A DNA stretch of 46,022 nt, from positions 1 through 46,022 of IMG/VR virus record IMGVR_UViG_3300045988_121014. One strand, given 5' to 3'. The position numbers and the translations under genes were made by a program. Below the pieces are notes generated by a model that did not search any database, was not told the DNA's origin, and saw only the letters and a list, made by a program, of their open reading frames with translations. Below are positions 8,081 through 36,171 of this stretch, piece after piece. Each line of letters begins with the position of its first letter. Position 1 is the first letter of the stretch. Source of the DNA: a virus.

Positions 8081-9115
8081 ATGATTATGGACAAGCTCCC
8101 GAGCGGTAGCTGGCGTGCAAGAGTGCTGATAGGAGAAAATAAGTACAAAACGTTTTCGGGCAAGGATAAGAAGGACGTGCAGCTCCGCGCGGCACAGTTC
8201 GAGGCGGAGAGGAAGATGGACAAGCCGGACGATCCGTATGCGGGCATGACGGTTGGAGAGGCTATGGAGCGGTACGTCGAGGCGAAGAAGAATACCCTGT
8301 CGCCGTCCTCGTACCGCGAATTTACACGCATCAGGTTAAGCAATCTTTCTGCGTTGCGAAATGTAAAGCTCGCCGATCTGACGCAGGAGCAGGTGCAGCT
8401 TGCCATAAGCGCGGAATCCGCCGACCACTCGCCGAAGACTGTCCGCTGTATGCACGGGCTGTTGTCCTCGACGTTGAAAATGTTCCGACCGGATATGACG
8501 CTGCATACGAAACTCCCACAGACGCAGAAGAGTGAGATCGTGATTCCGGAGGAGGTTGACGTCATGTCTCTGCTGGCGACTGTGCGGGGAAGTGATATCG
8601 ACGCCGCTGTTCACCTCGGCGCGCTGTGCGGGATGAGGATGTCGGAAATCCTCGGGCTGAGATGGTCTAAGGTGGATTTCGACGCGAAGACAATCCACAT
8701 CTGCGCGGCGAAGATCAGAGGGATGTACAACAAAGCTACTATGAAGCTTCCAAAGACCAGAGCCGGCGACCGGACAATCAGGATGCTGCCCGCCGTCGAG
8801 GCGGCGCTCAGACGCGCGTATCAGCCGGATGCGGAGTTTGTCACCACACTGTCGGAGCGTACCGTGCGGAAGCACTATCAGCACGCGCTTGAGCTGTGCT
8901 GTGGCAAGCACTATACTTTTCACGCTCTGCGCCACTATGCGGCGTCTGTGATGATCCTGCTGAATATCCCGGTGAAGTACATCGCCGACTATCTCGGGCA
9001 CGAAACTGAAGACATGGTGAACCGCATCTATGGGCATATTATGCGGGACAAGAAGGATGAAATATTCGCCCGGCTTGAAGAATACTATGATAACATTTTG
9101 CAAAATCCGTCATGA
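8081..9115 (+). CDS. int: tyrosine integrase (phage integrase family)
   Basis: C-terminal HALRHYAASV...LGHETEDMVNRIYGHI (R-H-R-Y catalytic signature), MRMSEILGLRW box. Adjacent attP-like region. Confidence 0.9.
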   Translation: MIMDKLPSGSWRARVLIGENKYKTFSGKDKKDVQLRAAQFEAERKMDKPDDPYAGMTVGEAMERYVEAKKNTLSPSSYREFTRIRLSNLSALRNVKLADLTQEQVQLAISAESADHSPKTVRCMHGLLSSTLKMFRPDMTLHTKLPQTQKSEIVIPEEVDVMSLLATVRGSDIDAAVHLGALCGMRMSEILGLRWSKVDFDAKTIHICAAKIRGMYNKATMKLPKTRAGDRTIRMLPAVEAALRRAYQPDAEFVTTLSERTVRKHYQHALELCCGKHYTFHALRHYAASVMILLNIPVKYIADYLGHETEDMVNRIYGHIMRDKKDEIFARLEEYYDNILQNPS

Positions 9116-9381: not shown

Positions 9382-9759
9382 TCATGCGTTTTTACGATAT
9401 GTCTTAAGCGCGTCTGAGATCAGCTCATTCGCAGTCATCCCATATGCCCCGCGAAGCTCGTCGATCAGCGCTTTGGTCGTCGACGACACGCTGATCTTCG
9501 CCCACTCTTTTTTTGCGCCGGTCTTAGCGTCGTAGTAGGCGTCTACGGGTCCGTAAGCGACCATAATCCAATCAGCGGCGGCTGTATTGGTCATCAGGTA
9601 TATATCCTCTCGCACGAGCCCTTTACTCCGTACAGTGTGGATAAAGTACTTCCCTGATTTCGTTCGGTAAAGGTACTCGGTGCACCCGTCGTACCGCGAT
9701 TCGCCGATCTGCTCCGCTGTGGAGGTATCGCACAGCGTGCCTTTAATTGTTCGTTTCAT
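9382..9759 (-). CDS. hypothetical protein with C-terminal ribbon-helix-helix-like segment (125 aa)
   Basis: AAGGAG SD. C-terminal KISVSSTTKALIDELRGAYGMTANELISDALKTY fits a beta-alpha-alpha RHH pattern. Confidence 0.6.
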   Translation of the reverse strand: MKRTIKGTLCDTSTAEQIGESRYDGCTEYLYRTKSGKYFIHTVRSKGLVREDIYLMTNTAAADWIMVAYGPVDAYYDAKTGAKKEWAKISVSSTTKALIDELRGAYGMTANELISDALKTYRKNA

Positions 9760-11582: not shown

Positions 11583-11921
11583 TTAGCCTCCGATTATATA
11601 TCCATACAGCTTGTCCACATCGGCGGCGGTCAGAGTCAGAGCGCCGACGAGCGGTACGTCGAAAGTTATCGCCCCGCGCTGCGCCTGAGCCGCGAATTCG
11701 CGGTAAACCGCGTCGATGTCGATTTGATCCTGCTCATCTATGACTCCCATCGCCGCGACGACGGGGTTATTTTTCAATGTATTAAAAATCTCTCCCGACC
11801 GGGACAGCATACGAGACGCTGCCGCGCCGAGAACCCATTTCTGCCAGCCGGGGATTTTCGCGAGGATTTCGGTGTCGAGATACCGCTCGATTCCGGCTGT
11901 AGCCTGTGCCAGAGTTACCAT
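11583..11921 (-). CDS. hypothetical protein (112 aa)
   Basis: GAGGTGA SD before ATG. Confidence 0.7.
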   Translation of the reverse strand: MVTLAQATAGIERYLDTEILAKIPGWQKWVLGAAASRMLSRSGEIFNTLKNNPVVAAMGVIDEQDQIDIDAVYREFAAQAQRGAITFDVPLVGALTLTAADVDKLYGYIIGG

Positions 11922-13226: not shown

Positions 13227-13428
13227 TATATCCTTTCTTGCTTATCTCTTTGTTTTCAGTGATTTTAATGACGCTCCCCAGCGCGAGTTCCACAGCTCCG
13301 ACGATCCCGCCGACCGAAAAAGCGGCGGTCAGGTCGGTGCCGGTGAGGGCTTGCAGGACGGCGATAAACGGCAGATAAATCGCGAGGTATATCAGCACGG
13401 CGAGTATCAGCCGTTTTAAGTACCTCAT
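13099..13428 (-). CDS. small two-TM membrane protein (second holin candidate). The 3' end overlaps the next gene out of frame
   Basis: LILAVLIYLAIYLPFIAVL and FSVGGIVGAVELALGSVI hydrophobic segments. ATGA overlap with the endolysin stop. Confidence 0.5.
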   Translation of the reverse strand: MRYLKRLILAVLIYLAIYLPFIAVLQALTGTDLTAAFSVGGIVGAVELALGSVIKITENKEISKKGYIENEQDGYNADTGAGSEADIHADNDFPRSETEGADIDQGRGE

Positions 13429-14225
13429 ACCGTCACCCAGCTGTTGATCTCGCTGAGCAGTATCGCGCCGGAGCGGACCTGTCGGACGATGTAGGTCTTG
13501 CCGACGAGCCGTGCCGGAACTTTGCGCCCGGTCGTGTAGACGTCGCCCGCCTTGACGGTGTAGGTGTCGCCGACTTTGTAGGTTTTCTTCGGCGCGGGCG
13601 GCTTGACGCCGTACCCATAGTCAATGTCCACATTCCCGACGGCTTTCGGCATTTTGCACATACCGAACTGCCACAGCATAGCGTTCGAGAACGCGGGCGG
13701 AAGGTCGGTCGGCAGGACGGTATCGAAAGTCGCCTTGCCGTCCTTGCTTTTGTACGAGGCGATCCACAGCGCGTACTTCGACAGCCGGTCGGAGTTGAGC
13801 CGGTACAGCCAGTAGTCCGGGTTTGTATACACTCCGGCTTTATACCCGCGCTTCGTCATTTCGGTACAAAATGTCTCTATGATGTCCGTCCGGAGCTTCG
13901 GGCTATACGCCACCTTGTGTTTCCCGGCGTACCGCTCCGTGTCATATTCAAAGTCATAAAACACCGGCAGATTGAGCTGACGCCCGCGCAGTGTCTCCGC
14001 GCATGCCTCGGCTTCCCGCCGCGCGTCGGCGACGTCGAGCGCGTAGCAGAACCAGTACACGCCGACGAGCATACCGCAGTCTTTCGCCGCTTTGATGTGG
14101 GATTCGAATTTTGCGTCGATGACCGTGCCGTACCCGGCGCGGATGACGCAGAAATCCACACCCTGTGACTTTATCGCGGGGAAACTCCGGATCGTGTTGT
14201 GCCGGGAGATATCGATGCCTTTCAT
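13425..14225 (-). CDS. endolysin: GH25 muramidase plus C-terminal SH3-like binding domain
   Basis: MKGIDISRHN..DFCVIRAGYG..GVYWFCYA..FYDFEYD is a GH25 signature. C-terminal KVGDTYTVKAGDVYTTG... Confidence 0.85.
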   Translation of the reverse strand: MKGIDISRHNTIRSFPAIKSQGVDFCVIRAGYGTVIDAKFESHIKAAKDCGMLVGVYWFCYALDVADARREAEACAETLRGRQLNLPVFYDFEYDTERYAGKHKVAYSPKLRTDIIETFCTEMTKRGYKAGVYTNPDYWLYRLNSDRLSKYALWIASYKSKDGKATFDTVLPTDLPPAFSNAMLWQFGMCKMPKAVGNVDIDYGYGVKPPAPKKTYKVGDTYTVKAGDVYTTGRKVPARLVGKTYIVRQVRSGAILLSEINSWVTV

Positions 14226-28804: not shown

Positions 28805-29347
28805 TCACGCCTTGAAGAGTGCCGCGAATTCGGTCGGATTATCGTTCTTGAACTGGACCTGTTCGGCGAAAGTGAGCTTGCCGAAAGCTTCTTTGGTCAT
28901 GGCGGTCGTTGCGGGAGCCTGCGAGGGGGCTTTGACGCCGGCCGCGAGTTCGCCCTTGACCTTGTTCGCCGTCGCTTCTCCATAAGCCTTGAACGCCGCT
29001 GCAATCGCCGTAGCGACCGAGGTCGTCTGTTCTGCGTCGGTGGTGACAATGCCGTCGAGGAAGGTCTCGTAAGCTTCCTTGGTCATGCCGTTCCCCGCGA
29101 GGATGCTTGCGGCTTCCTGCCGGTTCGCTTTGACGGTGAGCTGCTCGATCTGCTGCCTCTGCGCTTCGAGGCGTTCGGTCAGAGTGCCTTCATTGGTCTT
29201 CATGTCCTTCTTCGCTTTGGCGAGGTCGGACGCGGTTTTGTCGAAGGTCTCCTTGTTCACGAAGTTTTTGGTTGAGAGCGCGGTCGCGATCTCTTCCGCG
29301 GTCATCCCTTCGCGGTAGTCTTCGCCGAGTAAATCTCTGAGTTCCAT
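28805..29347 (-). CDS. scaffolding protein (180 aa)
   Basis: Helical, charged, Ala/Glu/Lys-rich. Lies between the portal and capsid genes. Confidence 0.65.
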   Translation of the reverse strand: MELRDLLGEDYREGMTAEEIATALSTKNFVNKETFDKTASDLAKAKKDMKTNEGTLTERLEAQRQQIEQLTVKANRQEAASILAGNGMTKEAYETFLDGIVTTDAEQTTSVATAIAAAFKAYGEATANKVKGELAAGVKAPSQAPATTAMTKEAFGKLTFAEQVQFKNDNPTEFAALFKA

Positions 29348-29472
29348 GTGATAATCCCTTTCTGCGTTTGGTGAGGCGGTTCTCTCCGCCATAGATTCGC
29401 GTTTTTCGGACTTCTCTGTCCATTGTTTAATAAATTAAAACCAGCGTCGCCCCGGGAGTGGGCTTAATAAAT

Positions 29473-29529
29473 TAAAAAGAGCACCAGAACCGACAGGCTG
29501 TGTAAAAGCCTGTAGATATCTGGCGCTCT
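29473..29529 (-). terminator. composite hairpin plus U-run inside the late operon
   Basis: Minus RNA reads AGAGCGCCAGA..ACAGGCU-uuuacac-AGCCUGU..UCUGGUGCUCU followed by UUUUAAUUU. Confidence 0.6.
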
Positions 29530-29563
29530 TGGCGCTCTGTGTTGTAGTGCGGGGTGTTCCCGC

Positions 29564-29749
29564 TTATGACGCGACCGTGCGTATGACGGCGTGTGAGCCT
29601 TCTGTGTGGGCTCTGACCGTCGTTCCGCAGCCGCGACACTTTATCTCCGCCACACCGCTTATTGCTCCGAGGAGCCTTCCGCAGTGCGGGCAGCGCACTT
29701 TAATCAGTTCCGGAGCTTCCGCCGCCGGAACTTTCTTTGTTTCCGTCAT
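29564..29749 (-). CDS. Com-like zinc-finger protein (Mu Com family pattern)
   Basis: IKVRCPHCGRLLGAISGVAEIKCRGCGT fits the RC..C.+LL...G..EIKC..C pattern. GGAGG SD. Confidence 0.65.
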   Translation of the reverse strand: MTETKKVPAAEAPELIKVRCPHCGRLLGAISGVAEIKCRGCGTTVRAHTEGSHAVIRTVAS

Positions 29750-31262
29750 TGCTTCCGCCTCCGGGCTTGTCCTGCCCTGACTTGTCCCGCGCGGTGCTCT
29801 CGAGGAGTTGGAGCCGCGCGGCGAGGTATGGGATCGAGTCGATATACGCCTGGTTCGGATCGTCGAACAGGTGAGGTATGCCGAACGCGATTTCGGGGTG
29901 TACTCCGGCGTCGAGAAGGTTCATGAGAGCCTGCGTTTTGACGAGCATATTCTCAGTGTTGCCCTTCGTGAACCGGATGTCGATGTCGGCGAGCCCGAGG
30001 TCGAGCTTGCCGTATGTTTTGAGAAGCGACAGCGCGATGCGGAGGAACTGTTTTTCGCTTCGTTCCCACTGCATAACGGTGTCTCTGGCGCAGCTTTCCG
30101 CCATTGCCCATCCGTCGCGGAGCAGTACGGCGTTGCCGGTGTCTCCGGTCGTGCGGTTCGCGCCGTTTCTGTCCGGCATACCGCAGATTGTGAGGGCTTG
30201 CTGATAGAGGTGGTCGATTTCGACCTGAGTTTGTGACTGGTCGAGTTCGGACGAGATGATGTCGACGTCCGAGGGGTTCGAGTTGTCCGACTTGATGACG
30301 ATAGCGCCTTCCTGCCGGAACTCTTTATACTTCTCGGGATCAATCTGGCAGTTGACGAATTTAATGAAACTCTGGACGAACTGTTCCGTGCCGTCGAGCC
30401 GGTTCGAGGACAGTTTGTTGATGCCGTCGAGGACTTCGAGAACGACTTCGAATGAGCCGAGCCGCGCGTTGTTGAGCGGGTATTCGATGATCGGCACCGC
30501 CCCGATGCCGTGGAGTCTCGAGGACGTGACGGTGTTGTTCACGATCTCGAACTGCATCGTATCGGTCCAGACGGTGTAGATTGTCTGCTGATTGTCCCTG
30601 AGCGTCTCCTGGAACGCCATGACCGGCTTCGCGCCGAGCTCTTTTGAGTAGACGACGCCGGTCCGTCTCGGGTCGAGACTGCCGATTTCGATTTTTTCGT
30701 CGTTTTCGAGGCTGCCGATGACATATCGGAACGCGGTTCCGCAGATGTGGTTCCACTCGGCTATGTCGTGGTCGATAGCTTCCTTGTCGAGGACGTGCAT
30801 GATTTCGTTGAGCCGCCCGACCTTTTCGGACACCGGATCGCGCGTCTGCGCGGCGGTGATCTCGTCGGGGGTCATGGTCATGCGGGCCTCTCCGCTCCGG
30901 ATTTTCCGGCGCGTGTACGCGATGGGCGCTCCGAGGAGGTACGCGACCTTGAAGGAGACGATTTCCCACGCGTGATTTTCGACGATTTTGTTGTTGATCT
31001 CCGGTCGTACTTCCTTGACGCGGTTGAGGATGGGCTGTCTGCCCTTGTAGTAGCCGTAGAGATAATTTATGTCGCTCTGGTTCCGGTGAAAGGTCGGAAG
31101 GACCTCGTTCAGCACCTGTACGACGTTCTCCACGTCGACCGTTTCTGCGTCGGTGTAGATGACGTGTCGTCCGGTCAGTACCGGAGAGACGTCGGGGAGG
31201 TCTGCCGCGCCGAATATGGGCGTTCCGTCATCTGCGTACCCTTCGACTTTTGGTTCCGCCAT
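29700..31262 (-). CDS. portal protein (SPP1 gp6-like)
   Basis: INYLYGYYKGRQPILNRVKEVRPEINNKIVENHAWEIV is a portal-family motif. Start chosen at MAEPKVE after GGTGGTGAAAGA. Confidence 0.85.
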   Translation of the reverse strand: MAEPKVEGYADDGTPIFGAADLPDVSPVLTGRHVIYTDAETVDVENVVQVLNEVLPTFHRNQSDINYLYGYYKGRQPILNRVKEVRPEINNKIVENHAWEIVSFKVAYLLGAPIAYTRRKIRSGEARMTMTPDEITAAQTRDPVSEKVGRLNEIMHVLDKEAIDHDIAEWNHICGTAFRYVIGSLENDEKIEIGSLDPRRTGVVYSKELGAKPVMAFQETLRDNQQTIYTVWTDTMQFEIVNNTVTSSRLHGIGAVPIIEYPLNNARLGSFEVVLEVLDGINKLSSNRLDGTEQFVQSFIKFVNCQIDPEKYKEFRQEGAIVIKSDNSNPSDVDIISSELDQSQTQVEIDHLYQQALTICGMPDRNGANRTTGDTGNAVLLRDGWAMAESCARDTVMQWERSEKQFLRIALSLLKTYGKLDLGLADIDIRFTKGNTENMLVKTQALMNLLDAGVHPEIAFGIPHLFDDPNQAYIDSIPYLAARLQLLESTARDKSGQDKPGGGSNDGNKESSGGGSSGTD

Positions 31263-31405
31263 TCTTTCACCACCAGTTCTTTGAAAATTCGCCCCGACGT
31301 GAGAAAGGTTAAAAACAGCGTCGGGGCGGAGGAGAAAACCATATCCGCAAACGGGCGGAGCATGGCAGACAGGCGGAAGGGGAAAGGGGGCGCCCGTCAT
31401 GTAAT

Positions 31406-31434
31406 ATTATACACCTTAAACGAATTTTTGTCAA
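31406..31434 (-). promoter_or_regulatory. perfect TTGACA-N17-TATAAT promoter between terL and portal
   Basis: Reverse complement of 31406-31434 = TTGACAaaaattcgtttaaggtgTATAAT. Confidence 0.75.
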
Positions 31435-31463
31435 GTGTTCCGGATAAACTTGTTGCATTATTA

Positions 31464-31497
31464 CGAAATTCCGTCATGGAAGGCGAAATTCCGTCAT
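31464..31497. repeat. 14-nt perfect direct repeat CGAAATTCCGTCAT x2 (20-nt period) upstream of the -35
   Basis: 31464-31477 and 31484-31497 are identical. Confidence 0.8.
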
Positions 31498-31502
31498 ACG
31501 TG

Positions 31503-33278
31503 TCAGAATACCCGTTTCTGCACAGAGACGATGCCCCAGTTTCCGGTGGCGAGGTCCATGAGCTGTGCGAGCGAATCGGGCGCGTCGTCGTGGACGTTCT
31601 TGCCGAGTGAGACGAAGGAGCAGAGCCATTCGATGAACGAACGGTACTCCGGCGTCGAGTGGTCGAAGTCGAGGAAGTGAATCTTCAGGATGTCCGGCGC
31701 GTACTGGATGATGCGCGAGAGCTTCGGCGCGTTTCCGGGAGCACGCCGCGTCGAGATGTTGAGAACGCACCCTTTCTCGCGGAGCATTTTGTCCACAGCC
31801 TGCGCGTATTCCGTACCGCCGTTGTTCGCCTCAAACTGCACCTGGTGTGGTCGGTGAATGAGCAGCTTTCCGACGACCGCGGGCTGCGTGAAGGTTTTGT
31901 TCGCATTCGAGAATACCACGTCGACGCAGTACATCGAGCCGTCGCCGTAGATGTAGACTATCGGCATCGCGAGGTAGTCGTCGCCGCCCCACGCGACGTC
32001 GCAGGCTGCGATTATCCTGTCCGGCTGACCGCCCGGGAGTATCCCGTTGTAACGGAGCAGGGAATCCGGCGGGAAGACAAGCCCCTGACGTATATACGGC
32101 GCCCCCTGATACTTCGCGCACCATGTGCAGTCGTCGATCGACGCTTTCATGTCGCGATAGTATTCGGTCGAGAACCCGACGCCGTAATCGTACTGGAAGT
32201 TCGATTCTCCGTTCGCGTCGAGCGCGGGAATGACGGTGAAGCGGTAATCCGGATTGTCGCGGTACTGCTCGCGCACACGCCCGAGCGGGTCCATGACGTT
32301 CCAGCGCGTACCGACCATCAGCTGTAGTGCGCCATCCTTCATACGGTCTTTCATCTGGTTCAGGTAGATGTTGTACTTCGCGTCGAGACGGGATGGAGAC
32401 AGCGATTCCTCGAGGTCTTTCACGAGGTCGTCGACATAGAGGATGCCGTCGCGCGAGATGTCGATAGCGCCCGTCCATGTACCTTCCGCCGACCGGCAGG
32501 TCATTGTCGGGAAGCGCTTCGGGTGGTTGAGGTTGATCTGGAGGTACTTCGCCGACCGGCTTTCGATCTGCGCGTGCGGGAACACGTCGTGCCAGAGGTA
32601 TTCGCCGTCCGGATCGAGCACCGCGTTCAGCTCACCGTAGAACCCGTTCACGAGTGTGTCGGAGTGCCCGCCCATTGCGGACGATTCGTCCGGATGACGT
32701 CCCATGTGCCAGGTCAGGAATAAGATGCAGAGAGTACTTTTGCCCGTCCTCGCTGGTAAGGACACCCCGAGAAACCTAATTTTGTGTTCTTCGAGGTCTT
32801 GAAGATCATTGCATATCCTGAGCAATATCTTCCGCCTCGGCAGCCAGAACTTTCTCGACGGCTCTCTGTTCCATTCGACGTACTGCATATAGTGGTCGAA
32901 TGAGTGCGGCGCGAGCAGAAGGCAGACTTTTCGTTTCAGCTCGTACCATTCCGGCGCGGCTGACGTCTTCGCGGCGGCTGACCTCGCGAGCATACGGTTC
33001 ACGACGTCGAAGAATTCTTTCCCTTTCGCCACCATGTAGGCAAGCTCCTCCTCGTATGATTCTGCCGAATTGTCCTGCGCGAGCCCCCTCAGCGCGTCGA
33101 AGTAGTCTTTCGCGACCGACAGACTGTCCGTTCCGTACGCCGCGACAGCCTCGCACAGCACGACGCACTCCGGCAGCCGGTCGTTCCAGTTCTCGAACCC
33201 GGGGAGAATCTTTTTGTTCCTATTCTTTACCTTTTTTGATTTCTTCTTTCCAGTATCTTCACATGAAAAAGCGCCCAT
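31503..33278 (-). CDS. terL: terminase large subunit
   Basis: LPARTGKSTL Walker-A-like ATPase motif, about 590 aa, upstream of the portal gene. AAAGGAGAG SD. Confidence 0.85.
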   Translation of the reverse strand: MGAFSCEDTGKKKSKKVKNRNKKILPGFENWNDRLPECVVLCEAVAAYGTDSLSVAKDYFDALRGLAQDNSAESYEEELAYMVAKGKEFFDVVNRMLARSAAAKTSAAPEWYELKRKVCLLLAPHSFDHYMQYVEWNREPSRKFWLPRRKILLRICNDLQDLEEHKIRFLGVSLPARTGKSTLCILFLTWHMGRHPDESSAMGGHSDTLVNGFYGELNAVLDPDGEYLWHDVFPHAQIESRSAKYLQINLNHPKRFPTMTCRSAEGTWTGAIDISRDGILYVDDLVKDLEESLSPSRLDAKYNIYLNQMKDRMKDGALQLMVGTRWNVMDPLGRVREQYRDNPDYRFTVIPALDANGESNFQYDYGVGFSTEYYRDMKASIDDCTWCAKYQGAPYIRQGLVFPPDSLLRYNGILPGGQPDRIIAACDVAWGGDDYLAMPIVYIYGDGSMYCVDVVFSNANKTFTQPAVVGKLLIHRPHQVQFEANNGGTEYAQAVDKMLREKGCVLNISTRRAPGNAPKLSRIIQYAPDILKIHFLDFDHSTPEYRSFIEWLCSFVSLGKNVHDDAPDSLAQLMDLATGNWGIVSVQKRVF

Positions 33279-33317
33279 GGCGCCACTCTCCTTTGGAAAA
33301 ATGGCGCTCTGGGCGCT
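33266..33317 (-). promoter_or_regulatory. two-part hairpin plus U4 enclosing the terL SD and start codon
   Basis: 33270-33276 pairs with 33311-33317 and 33280-33285 pairs with 33302-33307. The SD lies in the 16-nt loop and the AUG in the internal loop. Confidence 0.55.
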
Positions 33318-33478
33318 CTAAGTATAGGGGTACGGTACTCCGCCACGGCACGATGCTGGTGCGGGATTGCTAATTGTTCCGTGACCGCTTCACGCGGTCA
33401 GGTGAACGTTTGCAGTATCTGTTCGCTGTCTTTCCTTTTCGGGAACAGTCCTGTTATGGTCGGAGCCCTAACACTGAA

Positions 33479-33510
33479 TCAGCGTTAAGTCAGCGTTGAA
33501 TCAGCGTTAA
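33479..33510. repeat. TCAGCGTT(A/G)A x3 with an 11-nt period
   Basis: Copies start at 33479, 33490 and 33501. Confidence 0.8.
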
Positions 33511-33568
33511 ACTCGCGGCAACTTGCGTACTTGCACCGCCGTTTACACCTTGTTTGCGCATTGTTTAT

Positions 33569-33610
33569 AACTAAGTTAAAACTAACTTGAAACTAAGTTC
33601 AAACTAAGCG
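33569..33610. repeat. AACTAAGTT-like 9-mers x4 with an 11-nt period
   Basis: Copies start at 33569, 33580, 33591 and 33602. Confidence 0.8.
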
Positions 33611-33688
33611 GTCTGTTACACGTGTTATTGTGTTACGGTGTTACGGCTTGTTGGAGCTTGATTAAATCTTATTGTGGTGTTGTTGGAA

Positions 33689-34468
33689 TTATTTCAGTAT
33701 CGGCTCGTGCGCTCCGGGAACGTAGTCCTTCATGCTGCCGTACTTGTAGTACCCCTGGTACGTCTTCTTGTTCTCGTATATCGACTGAATCGAGCTGATA
33801 GAGAACTTCGAACCGCTGCGGTTCACCTTCCCGTCGCCGTTCAGCTTCGCGCAGATTCCCTGATATGTCGCGCCGAGATCGTCCTTCATGTGGAATACTT
33901 CACGCACAATCTCTGCCTCCGGCTCGTAGATTTCGAGCGCGTGATTCCTGACTTTGTACCCGTACGGAGCGCGCCCGCCGCTGTAGCCGCCGCTCGACGC
34001 CTTGACAGCACGTCCGGCTCCGGTCCGCTTGCTGATGTTGTCTCGTTCCATTGCCGCGCAGGTGAGCGTGAACGCCTTCAGCATCCCGGCGAACACGCCG
34101 AACTGCCCGAAGTCCTCGCAAATGCTGATAAGCTCAATCCCTTTGCGGAGAAGCGCCCCTTGATAGTAAAAGTAGATGTTGATGTCGCGTGCCACACGGT
34201 CTGACTTCGCCACGACGACCGCCTGTACCGGCGGATTGCTCACTTCACCGTATACGATCTCGTCGAATCCCGGACGGTACTTCGCGCCGCTCTCCCCCTC
34301 GTCTGAGTACCATTTCACGATGTTCATGTCATTCCTGCGGCAGTAGTCAATGATCTGCTCGCGCTGTGCCTCCAGCCCGAACTTATCCTCTCCGACCTGC
34401 CCGTCGGTGCTGACGCGGATGTACGCCACCACGTTTGTGATTTTCTCCTTGCTTACCTGATTCTCCAT
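33689..34468 (-). CDS. serine recombinase: resolvase catalytic domain plus recombinase domain, ending where large serine recombinases continue
   Basis: VVAYIRVSTDGQ catalytic Ser motif. PYGYKV...EAEIVREVF recombinase-domain motif. Ends ...GAHEPILK with no zinc-ribbon or coiled-coil region. Confidence 0.8.
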   Translation of the reverse strand: MENQVSKEKITNVVAYIRVSTDGQVGEDKFGLEAQREQIIDYCRRNDMNIVKWYSDEGESGAKYRPGFDEIVYGEVSNPPVQAVVVAKSDRVARDINIYFYYQGALLRKGIELISICEDFGQFGVFAGMLKAFTLTCAAMERDNISKRTGAGRAVKASSGGYSGGRAPYGYKVRNHALEIYEPEAEIVREVFHMKDDLGATYQGICAKLNGDGKVNRSGSKFSISSIQSIYENKKTYQGYYKYGSMKDYVPGAHEPILK

Positions 34469-34581
34469 TGCGGTTGATTCTCCATTCTCTGACCATGCCA
34501 CTGCGCCGGTCGCCTTTCTCGTCGGGGCTATGCTCCCCTTCACTGATTCTATTTCGGGGTGCTCCGCCCTTCGCTGATTCT

Positions 34582-36142: not shown

Positions 36143-36171
36143 TTGACAACCGCCCGCCGGCGTGCTATACT
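36143..36171 (+). promoter_or_regulatory. promoter TTGACA-N17-TATACT
   Basis: TTGACA at 36143-36148, 17-nt spacer, TATACT at 36166-36171. Confidence 0.7.

Follow-up and report, generated by a model that had tools for sequence, protein, structure and literature searches.

The 46,022-nucleotide phage genome deposited in IMG/VR as IMGVR_UViG_3300045988_121014 (positions 1 to 46,022, here called the window) carries a tandem repeat pair in three transcript leaders: before the large terminase gene terL, before the scaffold gene, and in a short RNA read from a promoter at 6126 (the P6126 RNA). Sequence comparison and RNA folding make it probable that these repeat pairs are RNA sites of a Com protein encoded by the phage itself, and that binding of Com opens hairpins that would otherwise terminate transcription or mask start sites of translation. 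The gene and the three sites are as follows.

29564..29749, minus strand: com, encoding a 61-amino-acid Com-like CxxC...CxxC zinc-ribbon protein, ribosome-binding site GGAGG
33303..33319, minus strand: Com-site repeat pair of the terL leader, AGAGCGCC-c-AGAGCGCC, in which a small hairpin GCGC/GCGC with loop CCAGA is possible
29522..29538, minus strand: Com-site repeat pair of the scaffold leader, AGAGCGCC-a-AGAGCGCC
6204..6221, plus strand: third Com-site repeat pair, AGAGCGCC-ac-AGAGCGCC, 44 nucleotides (nt) into the RNA from promoter 6126-6154

A first-pass annotation, made from the sequence alone, had reported the recurring element at three leaders, and all three copies stand as it wrote them: CCCTATACTgAGAGCGCCacAGAGCGCC at 6194-6221 (plus strand), CCCCTATACTtAGAGCGCCcAGAGCGCC at 33330-33303 (minus strand) and AGAGCGCCaAGAGCGCC at 29538-29522 (minus strand). 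The exact count on both strands that it had proposed gives nine copies of AGAGCGCC in the window, compared with 2.73 +/- 1.89 in 100 dinucleotide shuffles, none of which reached nine. Six of the nine make up the three tandem pairs, all in the sense of the local transcript; from the single-copy rate, by our own arithmetic, about 2e-4 such pairs would be expected by chance. The other three copies, near the chance number, are isolated: the one reported at 39980-39987 (minus strand) is real, and two more, at 11638 and 26389 (both plus strand), had been overlooked. The pairs read A-GAG-CG-CC-(CA, AA or ACA)-GAG-CG-CC, and matches in the window to the generalized motif GAGNNCC-N1-5-GAGNNCC are confined to these three places.

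The end of the portal gene and com overlap, and the com stop codon lies 25 nt before the scaffold-leader repeat pair. The top Pfam family for its product is PF10122, Zn_ribbon_Com (E=1.1e-4, 22.0 bits). The window protein is 45% identical to proteins of a type marked by the pattern AEIKCPRC (alignment A1); one scanned protein of this type, an intermediate, scores above the Pfam cut-off at 32.6 bits, and the columns R-C-x2-C-x2-LL...C-x2-C are invariant and common to the window protein and Mu Com. A protein homologue search with Com returned only three near-identical clusters. Membership of open reading frame (ORF) 29564-29749 in the Com family is borderline by score and convincing by context.

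The RNA preference of a Mu-like Com from Haemophilus sputorum was determined by in vitro selection (SELEX) as NGAGNNCC(N)2-3GAGNNCCNN (Nowacka et al. 2019, PMC6483171). The halves of this motif flank a stem of 3-4 bp that is invariably closed by a C-G pair, and it is the loop GA that Com contacts; in Mu, the Com hairpin lies directly 5' of the hairpin masking the mom start (PMC6483171). All three window sites agree with the motif wherever it is fixed, and their spacers measure 2, 2 and 3 nt. The small stem predicted here, GCGC/GCGC, is 4 bp long, is closed by a C-G pair and has GA as the last two nucleotides of its loop; the hairpins with loops CCAGA and CACAGA are predicted at -5.5 and -5.8 kcal/mol, the loop at the scaffold site, read from the sequence with no separate fold, is CAAGA, and the general form is a GCGC/GCGC stem closed by C-G with a loop C-N2-3-GA. 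One of the roles that had been suggested for the element, binding by a phage antiterminator or translational activator, is supported and narrowed to Com by the motif match, the adjoining com gene, and the co-travel of gene, repeats and terminator in unrelated phages; a Com-like protein was already named among the candidate factors.

At the two late-operon sites the repeats enter larger predicted structures ending in U-runs.

31503-33278, minus strand: terL, head of the late operon
33276-33278, minus strand: terL AUG
33286-33293, minus strand: terL ribosome-binding site, AAGGAGAG
33296-33302, minus strand: U-tract pairing with the terL ribosome-binding site
33266..33302, minus strand: 3' half of the terL leader hairpin, minimum free energy (MFE) of the hairpin -39.4 kcal/mol, z -7.65
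29472..29530, minus strand: predicted intrinsic terminator of the scaffold leader, MFE -32.9 kcal/mol, z -6.83

Both hairpins had been anticipated by the first-pass annotation and are real as predictions. The pairings it gave at terL (33270-33276 with 33311-33317, and 33280-33285 with 33302-33307) are subsets of the predicted helices, whose 3' arms are GGCGCC and GGGCGCU and which are followed by a U-run at 33266-33270. Its placement of the terL Shine-Dalgarno sequence in the loop was wrong, the ribosome-binding site being paired with the U-tract, and in the AUG, which it had put in an internal loop, U and G are paired in the predicted fold. With ribosome-binding site and AUG both sequestered in the MFE structure, in the manner of the Mu start-site mask, the predicted terL leader hairpin reads as a combined terminator and start-site mask. 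In the scaffold leader the predicted terminator helix (29519-29530 with 29477-29488) has repeat 2 as its 5' arm and encloses an inner hairpin, after which comes the U-run at 29472-29476. When the repeats are blocked in silico, 19-23 kcal/mol of structure is lost, and the inner hairpin that remains at the scaffold site does not abut the U-run.

Both late sites are carried by 17 close IMG/VR relatives, and those in which the region was retrieved also have the 6194 site. The terL leader structure is kept in nine relatives, and the scaffold terminator shows one fully compensatory pair (C-G, U-G, U-A) together with G-C/G-U variation. In a relative that is 86% identical (L007), the terL site reads GAGCAUC-CA-GAAUGCC and both 3' arms are altered to match; the site after its com gene reads GAGCGUC-AU-GAACGCC with GGCGUUCUUUUU.

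The third site lies in the leader of a small ORF on the opposite strand.

6126..6154, plus strand: consensus sigma-70-type promoter TTGACA-17-TATAAT, source of the RNA with the third site
6232-6241, plus strand: strong ribosome-binding site GGGGAGGUGG
6246-6329, plus strand: hydrophobic ORF of 27 amino acids (MSKFEKLYLTVCILQLIVDLLMLGLTL), start codon GUG at 6246-6248

In the fold of the full P6126 RNA of about 290 nt, the ribosome-binding site and the GUG are base-paired to the repeat spacer and to repeat 2, with an unpaired probability of at most 0.03 for the GUG, again as in a Mu-type start mask; the RNA is also predicted to close on itself by a 13-bp 5'-3' stem (6174-6186 with 6426-6438). 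The third site would be a Mu-like start-site mask without a terminator, for which the models speak less strongly than at the late sites. The 27-amino-acid ORF stays in frame in relatives, where its changes are synonymous and conservative, and the third repeat pair is kept in all close relatives, even with a downstream helix-turn-helix (HTH) gene at 62-66% identity.

Repeat 2, and at terL both repeats, belong to the small and to the large hairpin alike, and the two structures are therefore mutually exclusive. We propose that, without Com, the strong hairpin would form, using these same nucleotides as its 5' arm. In the terL leader a 22-bp structure with its U-run would stop transcription and bury the terL ribosome-binding site and AUG; after com an intrinsic terminator would stand ahead of the scaffold and capsid genes; and in the P6126 RNA a hairpin would cover the ribosome-binding site and GUG of the 27-amino-acid peptide. 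Com, once accumulated, would bind the nascent repeats as they leave the polymerase and hold the small hairpin, so that the strong hairpin could not nucleate, and its prevention would allow transcription to read through or the start site to be opened. The amount of Com would in this way set the timing of terL, of the scaffold and capsid genes, and of the small peptide. We infer that this Com binds these RNAs and that the U-run hairpins terminate transcription in the host; activation, as the direction of the effect, is taken by analogy from Mu.

Com itself would come from the portal-com message, for which a conserved promoter at 31434 is a plausible source.

31406..31434, minus strand: consensus promoter between terL and portal

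The hexamers of this promoter are invariant in 16 of 16 relatives examined, while spacer and flanks vary, and it could supply portal and com transcripts past the terL-leader terminator. The com gene lies upstream of its own terminator and downstream of promoter 31406-31434, which could prime the circuit independently of the block in the terL leader.

Independent evidence comes from unrelated phages. An exact repeat-pair scan of IMG/VR found, besides the relatives, unrelated contigs with the repeat pair, the hairpin and GGCGCU(C)UUUU in that order, and in several of them a Com-like ORF ends at or over the repeats. To avoid circularity, Com loci were then chosen from IMG/VR by the protein pattern AEIKCPRC alone, which gave 67 distinct loci. 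The strict motif GAGNNCC-N1-5-GAGNNCC occurs within 200 nt downstream in 32 of the 67 (0.009 expected per locus), and with up to one mismatch allowed the pair occurs in 40; complementary cores are seen in 34 of these 40 loci, and in 31 of the 40 a U-run comes after a 3' arm that is complementary to repeat 2. In many unrelated phages com itself ends in the repeats as its final codons, and this accounts for the conserved '...TERQKSAS' C-termini. RNAalifold, applied to 24 unrelated sites, joins repeat 2 to the 3' arm by a helix of 13 bp, and 7 of the 13 pairs show double changes. The small-hairpin stem is 99% paired in the same sites, with six double changes, as against 3-75% when the partner is slid, and it is kept, without being imposed, in 26 of 32 distinct sequence triples.

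A covariance-model search had been suggested for this element. The model built from the 24 unrelated sequences only ranks the three window sites 1 to 3: the scaffold site (29473-29539, 38.4 bits, E=6e-7), the terL site (33263-33320, 29.3 bits, E=6e-5) and the third site (6203-6249, 10.9 bits, E=0.68), where it aligns the same start-site pairing. The gene order in the unrelated phages is portal, com, repeat pair with terminator, and scaffold, the scaffold protein being visibly like that of the window. Another site is found 3.3-4.9 kb upstream of com, immediately ahead of a terminase large-subunit gene (identified by eye from translation motifs, not by family libraries), with the ribosome-binding site within the 3' arm and the U-run ending at the AUG. 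As terL-leader and scaffold-leader sites recur in unrelated phages, the pairing of sites is a family trait and not a peculiarity of the window. The element shares its strand with the adjacent com or downstream gene in every carrier examined.

GC-rich stems with U-runs are common, and the P6126 copy has no terminator; the hairpins might then be ordinary factor-independent terminators whose 5' arm was duplicated by chance, the likeness to Com being a coincidence. We give this very little credence, as the repeat pair is at least 35-fold enriched beside Com genes chosen without reference to RNA, and as the unpaired first repeat is conserved, its core co-varying with that of the second; a plain terminator would lead one to expect neither.

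Two of the sites share a further sequence.

33320..33330, minus strand: box CCCCTATACTT directly 5' of the terL repeats, common to the 6194 site only

The TATACT of this box had suggested a phage-specific promoter, and it is also the -10 of the promoter at 36143. Direct repeats about one helical turn (9-10 bp) apart in the leaders of regulated operons would likewise suit duplex DNA, as an operator or activator site of a late regulator or as a late promoter with the -10 TATACT. The promoter role is not borne out: there is no -35 element 16-18 bp upstream of either TATACT, a promoter scan found none at 33321-33326 or 6198-6203, and TATACT is missing at the scaffold site, at the terL site of L007 (where it is replaced by CATACAAC) and in all unrelated carriers. 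Moreover, covariation of the repeat cores preserves their RNA pairing, both mutual and with the 3' arm, which is not required of duplex DNA, and in the carriers examined the orientation always follows the adjacent com or downstream gene. Altogether, a function as duplex DNA appears highly improbable. The TATACT part is peculiar to the lineage of the window phage. The CCCCTATACTT box as a whole is absent from the scaffold site, from L007 and from the unrelated phages; the CCCTATACT box may reflect a recent duplication between the two sites.

Several other readings of these sequences were tried and dropped. DNA inversion was suggested by the inverted orientation of the 6194 and 33330 copies and by the serine recombinase beside one of them; it is contradicted by 15 terL-site and 14 P6126-site contexts in relatives, which have the same flanks throughout, and the sites are internal direct repeats without the symmetry of Gin- or Hin-type invertase sites. 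A likeness of CCCTATAcTGAG to the reverse complement of the T7 promoter is in the wrong orientation and was put down to coincidence; no phage RNA polymerase was found among the subset of ORFs scanned. The likeness of GCUCUUUUUAA to boxA is not kept in other carriers.

The surroundings of the third site recall other kinds of control. The consensus promoters 6126 (plus strand) and 6501 (minus strand) are convergent, and the minus-strand RNA has a terminator at 6421-6394, about 45 nt past its start, in a layout reminiscent of type I toxin-antitoxin pairs and of the P2/186 convergent switches. Sequences for pairing in trans exist, and either the P6126 RNA or the antisense early leader from promoter 6501, which contains GGCGCUCU twice, might pair with the late leaders and shift termination, a form of the RNA cross-talk considered in the first-pass annotation. 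Such an explanation is unsupported and has a very small chance of being right: an intramolecular hairpin of -33 to -39 kcal/mol should form faster than a trans duplex of 8-17 nt, the unrelated carriers examined have terL-leader and com-proximal sites without a third copy in their available DNA, and the third copy pairs locally with the start region of the small ORF, where control by Com would account for it.

The HTH regulator downstream of the third site is 62-66% identical to its counterparts in contigs L251-L262, which are otherwise near-identical phages with an identical leader; these comparisons suggest exchangeable immunity alleles, with a mosaic boundary directly after the small ORF. 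In one relative (L263, IMGVR_UViG_3300013936_000006, positions 1-60) the P6126-type site has grown to four tandem GAGCGCC half-sites, located about 1.45 kb upstream of the HTH gene, not about 0.36 kb.

A number of observations weigh against the proposed role of Com. The score of the window Com, 22.0 bits, falls 0.9 bit short of the Pfam cut-off of 22.9, and in many unrelated sites the spacer is 4 nt, beyond the 2-3 of the SELEX motif. When the terL repeats are blocked in silico, a 6-bp GC hairpin (GGCGCC-AUG-GGCGCU, -9.2 kcal/mol) stays, with the AUG in its loop and the U-run behind it, and the relief by Com at terL may, on this model, be partial; judging by sequence, with no fold made, this residual hairpin should be weaker in the relatives, which carry GGCGUC. 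At the blocked scaffold site of this variant, GGUGC beside the U-run is predicted to find a new partner in a weak upstream arm, GCACU. The first 100 nt of the P6126 leader have no significant structure (z=-1.06), and the ribosome-binding site of the 27-amino-acid ORF is predicted to be still paired when the repeats are blocked. The relatives of the window phage are close, which makes covariation within the lineage thin. As to the host, an assignment was tried and rejected: the two close hits are phage-sized contigs in unrelated metagenome-assembled genomes (MAGs), of Gastranaerophilales and Akkermansia. More distant TerL relatives sit in Clostridia and Erysipelotrichaceae MAGs.

Part of this would suit a Com that binds the same RNAs and represses, stabilizing the terminator or mask, or a Com that is engaged in autoregulation or titrated, for example by the abundant P6126 RNA acting as a sponge. 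With blocked repeats a small GC hairpin ahead of the U-run still holds the terL AUG, the 27-amino-acid ORF still has a paired ribosome-binding site, and a role in autoregulation agrees with the position of the repeats inside the 3' end of com in many phages. Repression is nevertheless unlikely. In 31 of 40 sites the 5' arm of the terminator is formed by repeat 2, whose occupancy can only weaken the helix; the only Com that has been studied is an activator that opens a start-site hairpin; and com upstream of the terminator is the natural layout of a feed-forward antiterminator.

Between the terminator and the scaffold start codon lies a further structured element.

29375..29421, minus strand: two hairpins with the invariant loop AGAGAA (stems GGAC/GUCC and GGCGG/CCGCC), between the terminator and the scaffold AUG at 29347

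Hairpins with this loop are present at 34 of 66 unrelated Com loci (86 hairpins in all; 0.04 expected per locus) and form a second conserved motif of the Com module. They come in arrays of one to three, about 30 nt apart, with variable and co-varying stems of 4-5 bp (for example, GUGC-AGAGAA-GCAC), are often followed by UUAAAACGCAA, and are placed between the Com-controlled terminator and the scaffold gene; in L007 they occur at 9650-9700. They have no Rfam match, and their likeness to boxB/nut hairpins is loose.

The window looks like the complete genome of a temperate siphovirus-type phage from human gut. Its late operon begins with terL, continues with portal, scaffold, capsid and tail genes and reaches to an endolysin (13425-14225), and the early replication genes are on the minus strand; the most likely corrected starts of portal and scaffold are 31261 and 29347. 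Other genes mentioned or of interest here are the following.

6569-6907: HTH regulator
8081-9115: tyrosine integrase
33689-34543: serine recombinase of 284 amino acids with Resolvase and Recombinase domains and without a zinc-ribbon domain

The 410-bp gene-free stretch 33279-33688 between this short serine recombinase and terL holds the direct repeats ACTTAGTT (four copies) and TTAACGCTGA (three copies), together with a hairpin, TGACCGC-GUGAA-GCGGUCA, that is conserved; upstream of terL there is no evident small-terminase gene, and the stretch may be a packaging-site or iteron region. A related 48-kb contig (L003, IMGVR_UViG_3300045988_155472) has its position 1 at CCTATACTT, 9 nt before the terL-leader repeats, which may be an assembly coincidence or a hint of a genome end nearby. 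The terL match in the relatives L008-L013 spans 2256 bp versus 1773 bp in several, and in others it starts at residue 178, about 1.6 kb past the leader, suggesting an insertion (intron, intein or homing endonuclease). The terL-portal spacer (31262-31502, minus strand) contains, in addition to the conserved promoter, a structured leader with a conserved GGUUUUCUCCUCC tract and a 9-bp hairpin, GCCCCGACG...CGUCGGGGC, in which relatives show compensatory changes; it may be a further attenuator before portal.

Among known systems, com-mom of Mu is the closest parallel. The two systems share a small zinc-ribbon protein of CCCC type from one Pfam family, an RNA site made of two GAGNNCC halves that folds into a short hairpin closed by a C-G pair and carrying GA in its loop, and a regulator gene directly upstream of a target; and just as the Com hairpin of Mu lies beside the translation inhibition structure (TIS), the sites described here abut or overlap a start-masking hairpin, of terL and of the 27-amino-acid ORF. 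In contrast to Mu, the targets are terL and scaffold, that is packaging and head genes, and the 27-amino-acid ORF, and not a DNA-modification gene (mom or an adenine methyltransferase), a target that is typical rather than defining for Com. Two of the three hairpins end in terminator-like U-runs, so that control would act at both transcription and translation; there are three sites, a small regulon, instead of one; the inhibitory hairpin has the repeat itself as one arm and not as a separate hairpin next to it; and the window is a siphovirus-type gut phage, not a Mu-like one. Unlike these natural sites, the SELEX RNAs (PMC6483171) are artificial and have no downstream partner arm.

In BglG/LicT/SacY with their RAT (ribonucleic antiterminator) sites, HutP and ANTAR, as proposed here, a protein on the nascent RNA overlaps the 5' arm of a terminator and favours a small alternative structure. 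The protein fold differs, a zinc ribbon here as opposed to CAT/PRD, HutP or ANTAR, as does the RNA motif, and no small-molecule or phosphorylation input is evident; the signal would be the amount of Com. The lambda Q protein at PR'-tR' (6S RNA) likewise overcomes a terminator at the start of the late operon, although Q binds promoter DNA and modifies RNA polymerase processively, whereas RNA binding at each terminator is indicated here; neither a Q-like gene nor a Q binding element was recognized in the window. Rfam 15 gave no match at gathering score in the whole window, and a relaxed search around the sites gave only chance-level matches (E about 0.2-1). A tblastn search of the cultured phages in INPHARED with two Com queries did not find the module, returning weak Aeromonas and Vibrio matches and the unannotated MT836094. 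Literature searches that combined Com with the motif, with late genes or with antitermination turned up only work on Mu and Mu-like phages, in which Com controls the translation of mom or an adenine methyltransferase. The protein family and the RNA motif were thus already known; new are the coupling to intrinsic terminators, the packaging and head targets, the several sites per genome, and the wide spread in uncultivated phages.

If the proposed role of Com is correct, it would add a second function, transcription antitermination, to a protein known experimentally only as a translational activator in the mom operon of Mu and its Mu-like relatives. It would also explain why small ORFs and 'TERQKSAS'-type C-termini are conserved between portal and scaffold, their codons being the RNA site. 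Mu Com and its hairpin are already in use as a tethering pair in genome-engineering tools, and for this reason naturally diversified protein-RNA pairs coupled to terminators could serve as small orthogonal switches. More broadly, and tentatively, since we rate the chances at slightly less than even, Com proteins might be the master post-transcriptional timer of virion assembly in many uncultivated tailed phages, acting as antiterminators at a two-site regulon (the terL leader and the portal/scaffold junction), with a third site here gating a toxin-like 27-amino-acid peptide, and perhaps together with nut/boxB-like AGAGAA-loop arrays. The system proposed for this genome would represent, if true, a compact and widespread means of timing the packaging and head genes in many gut and environmental phages.

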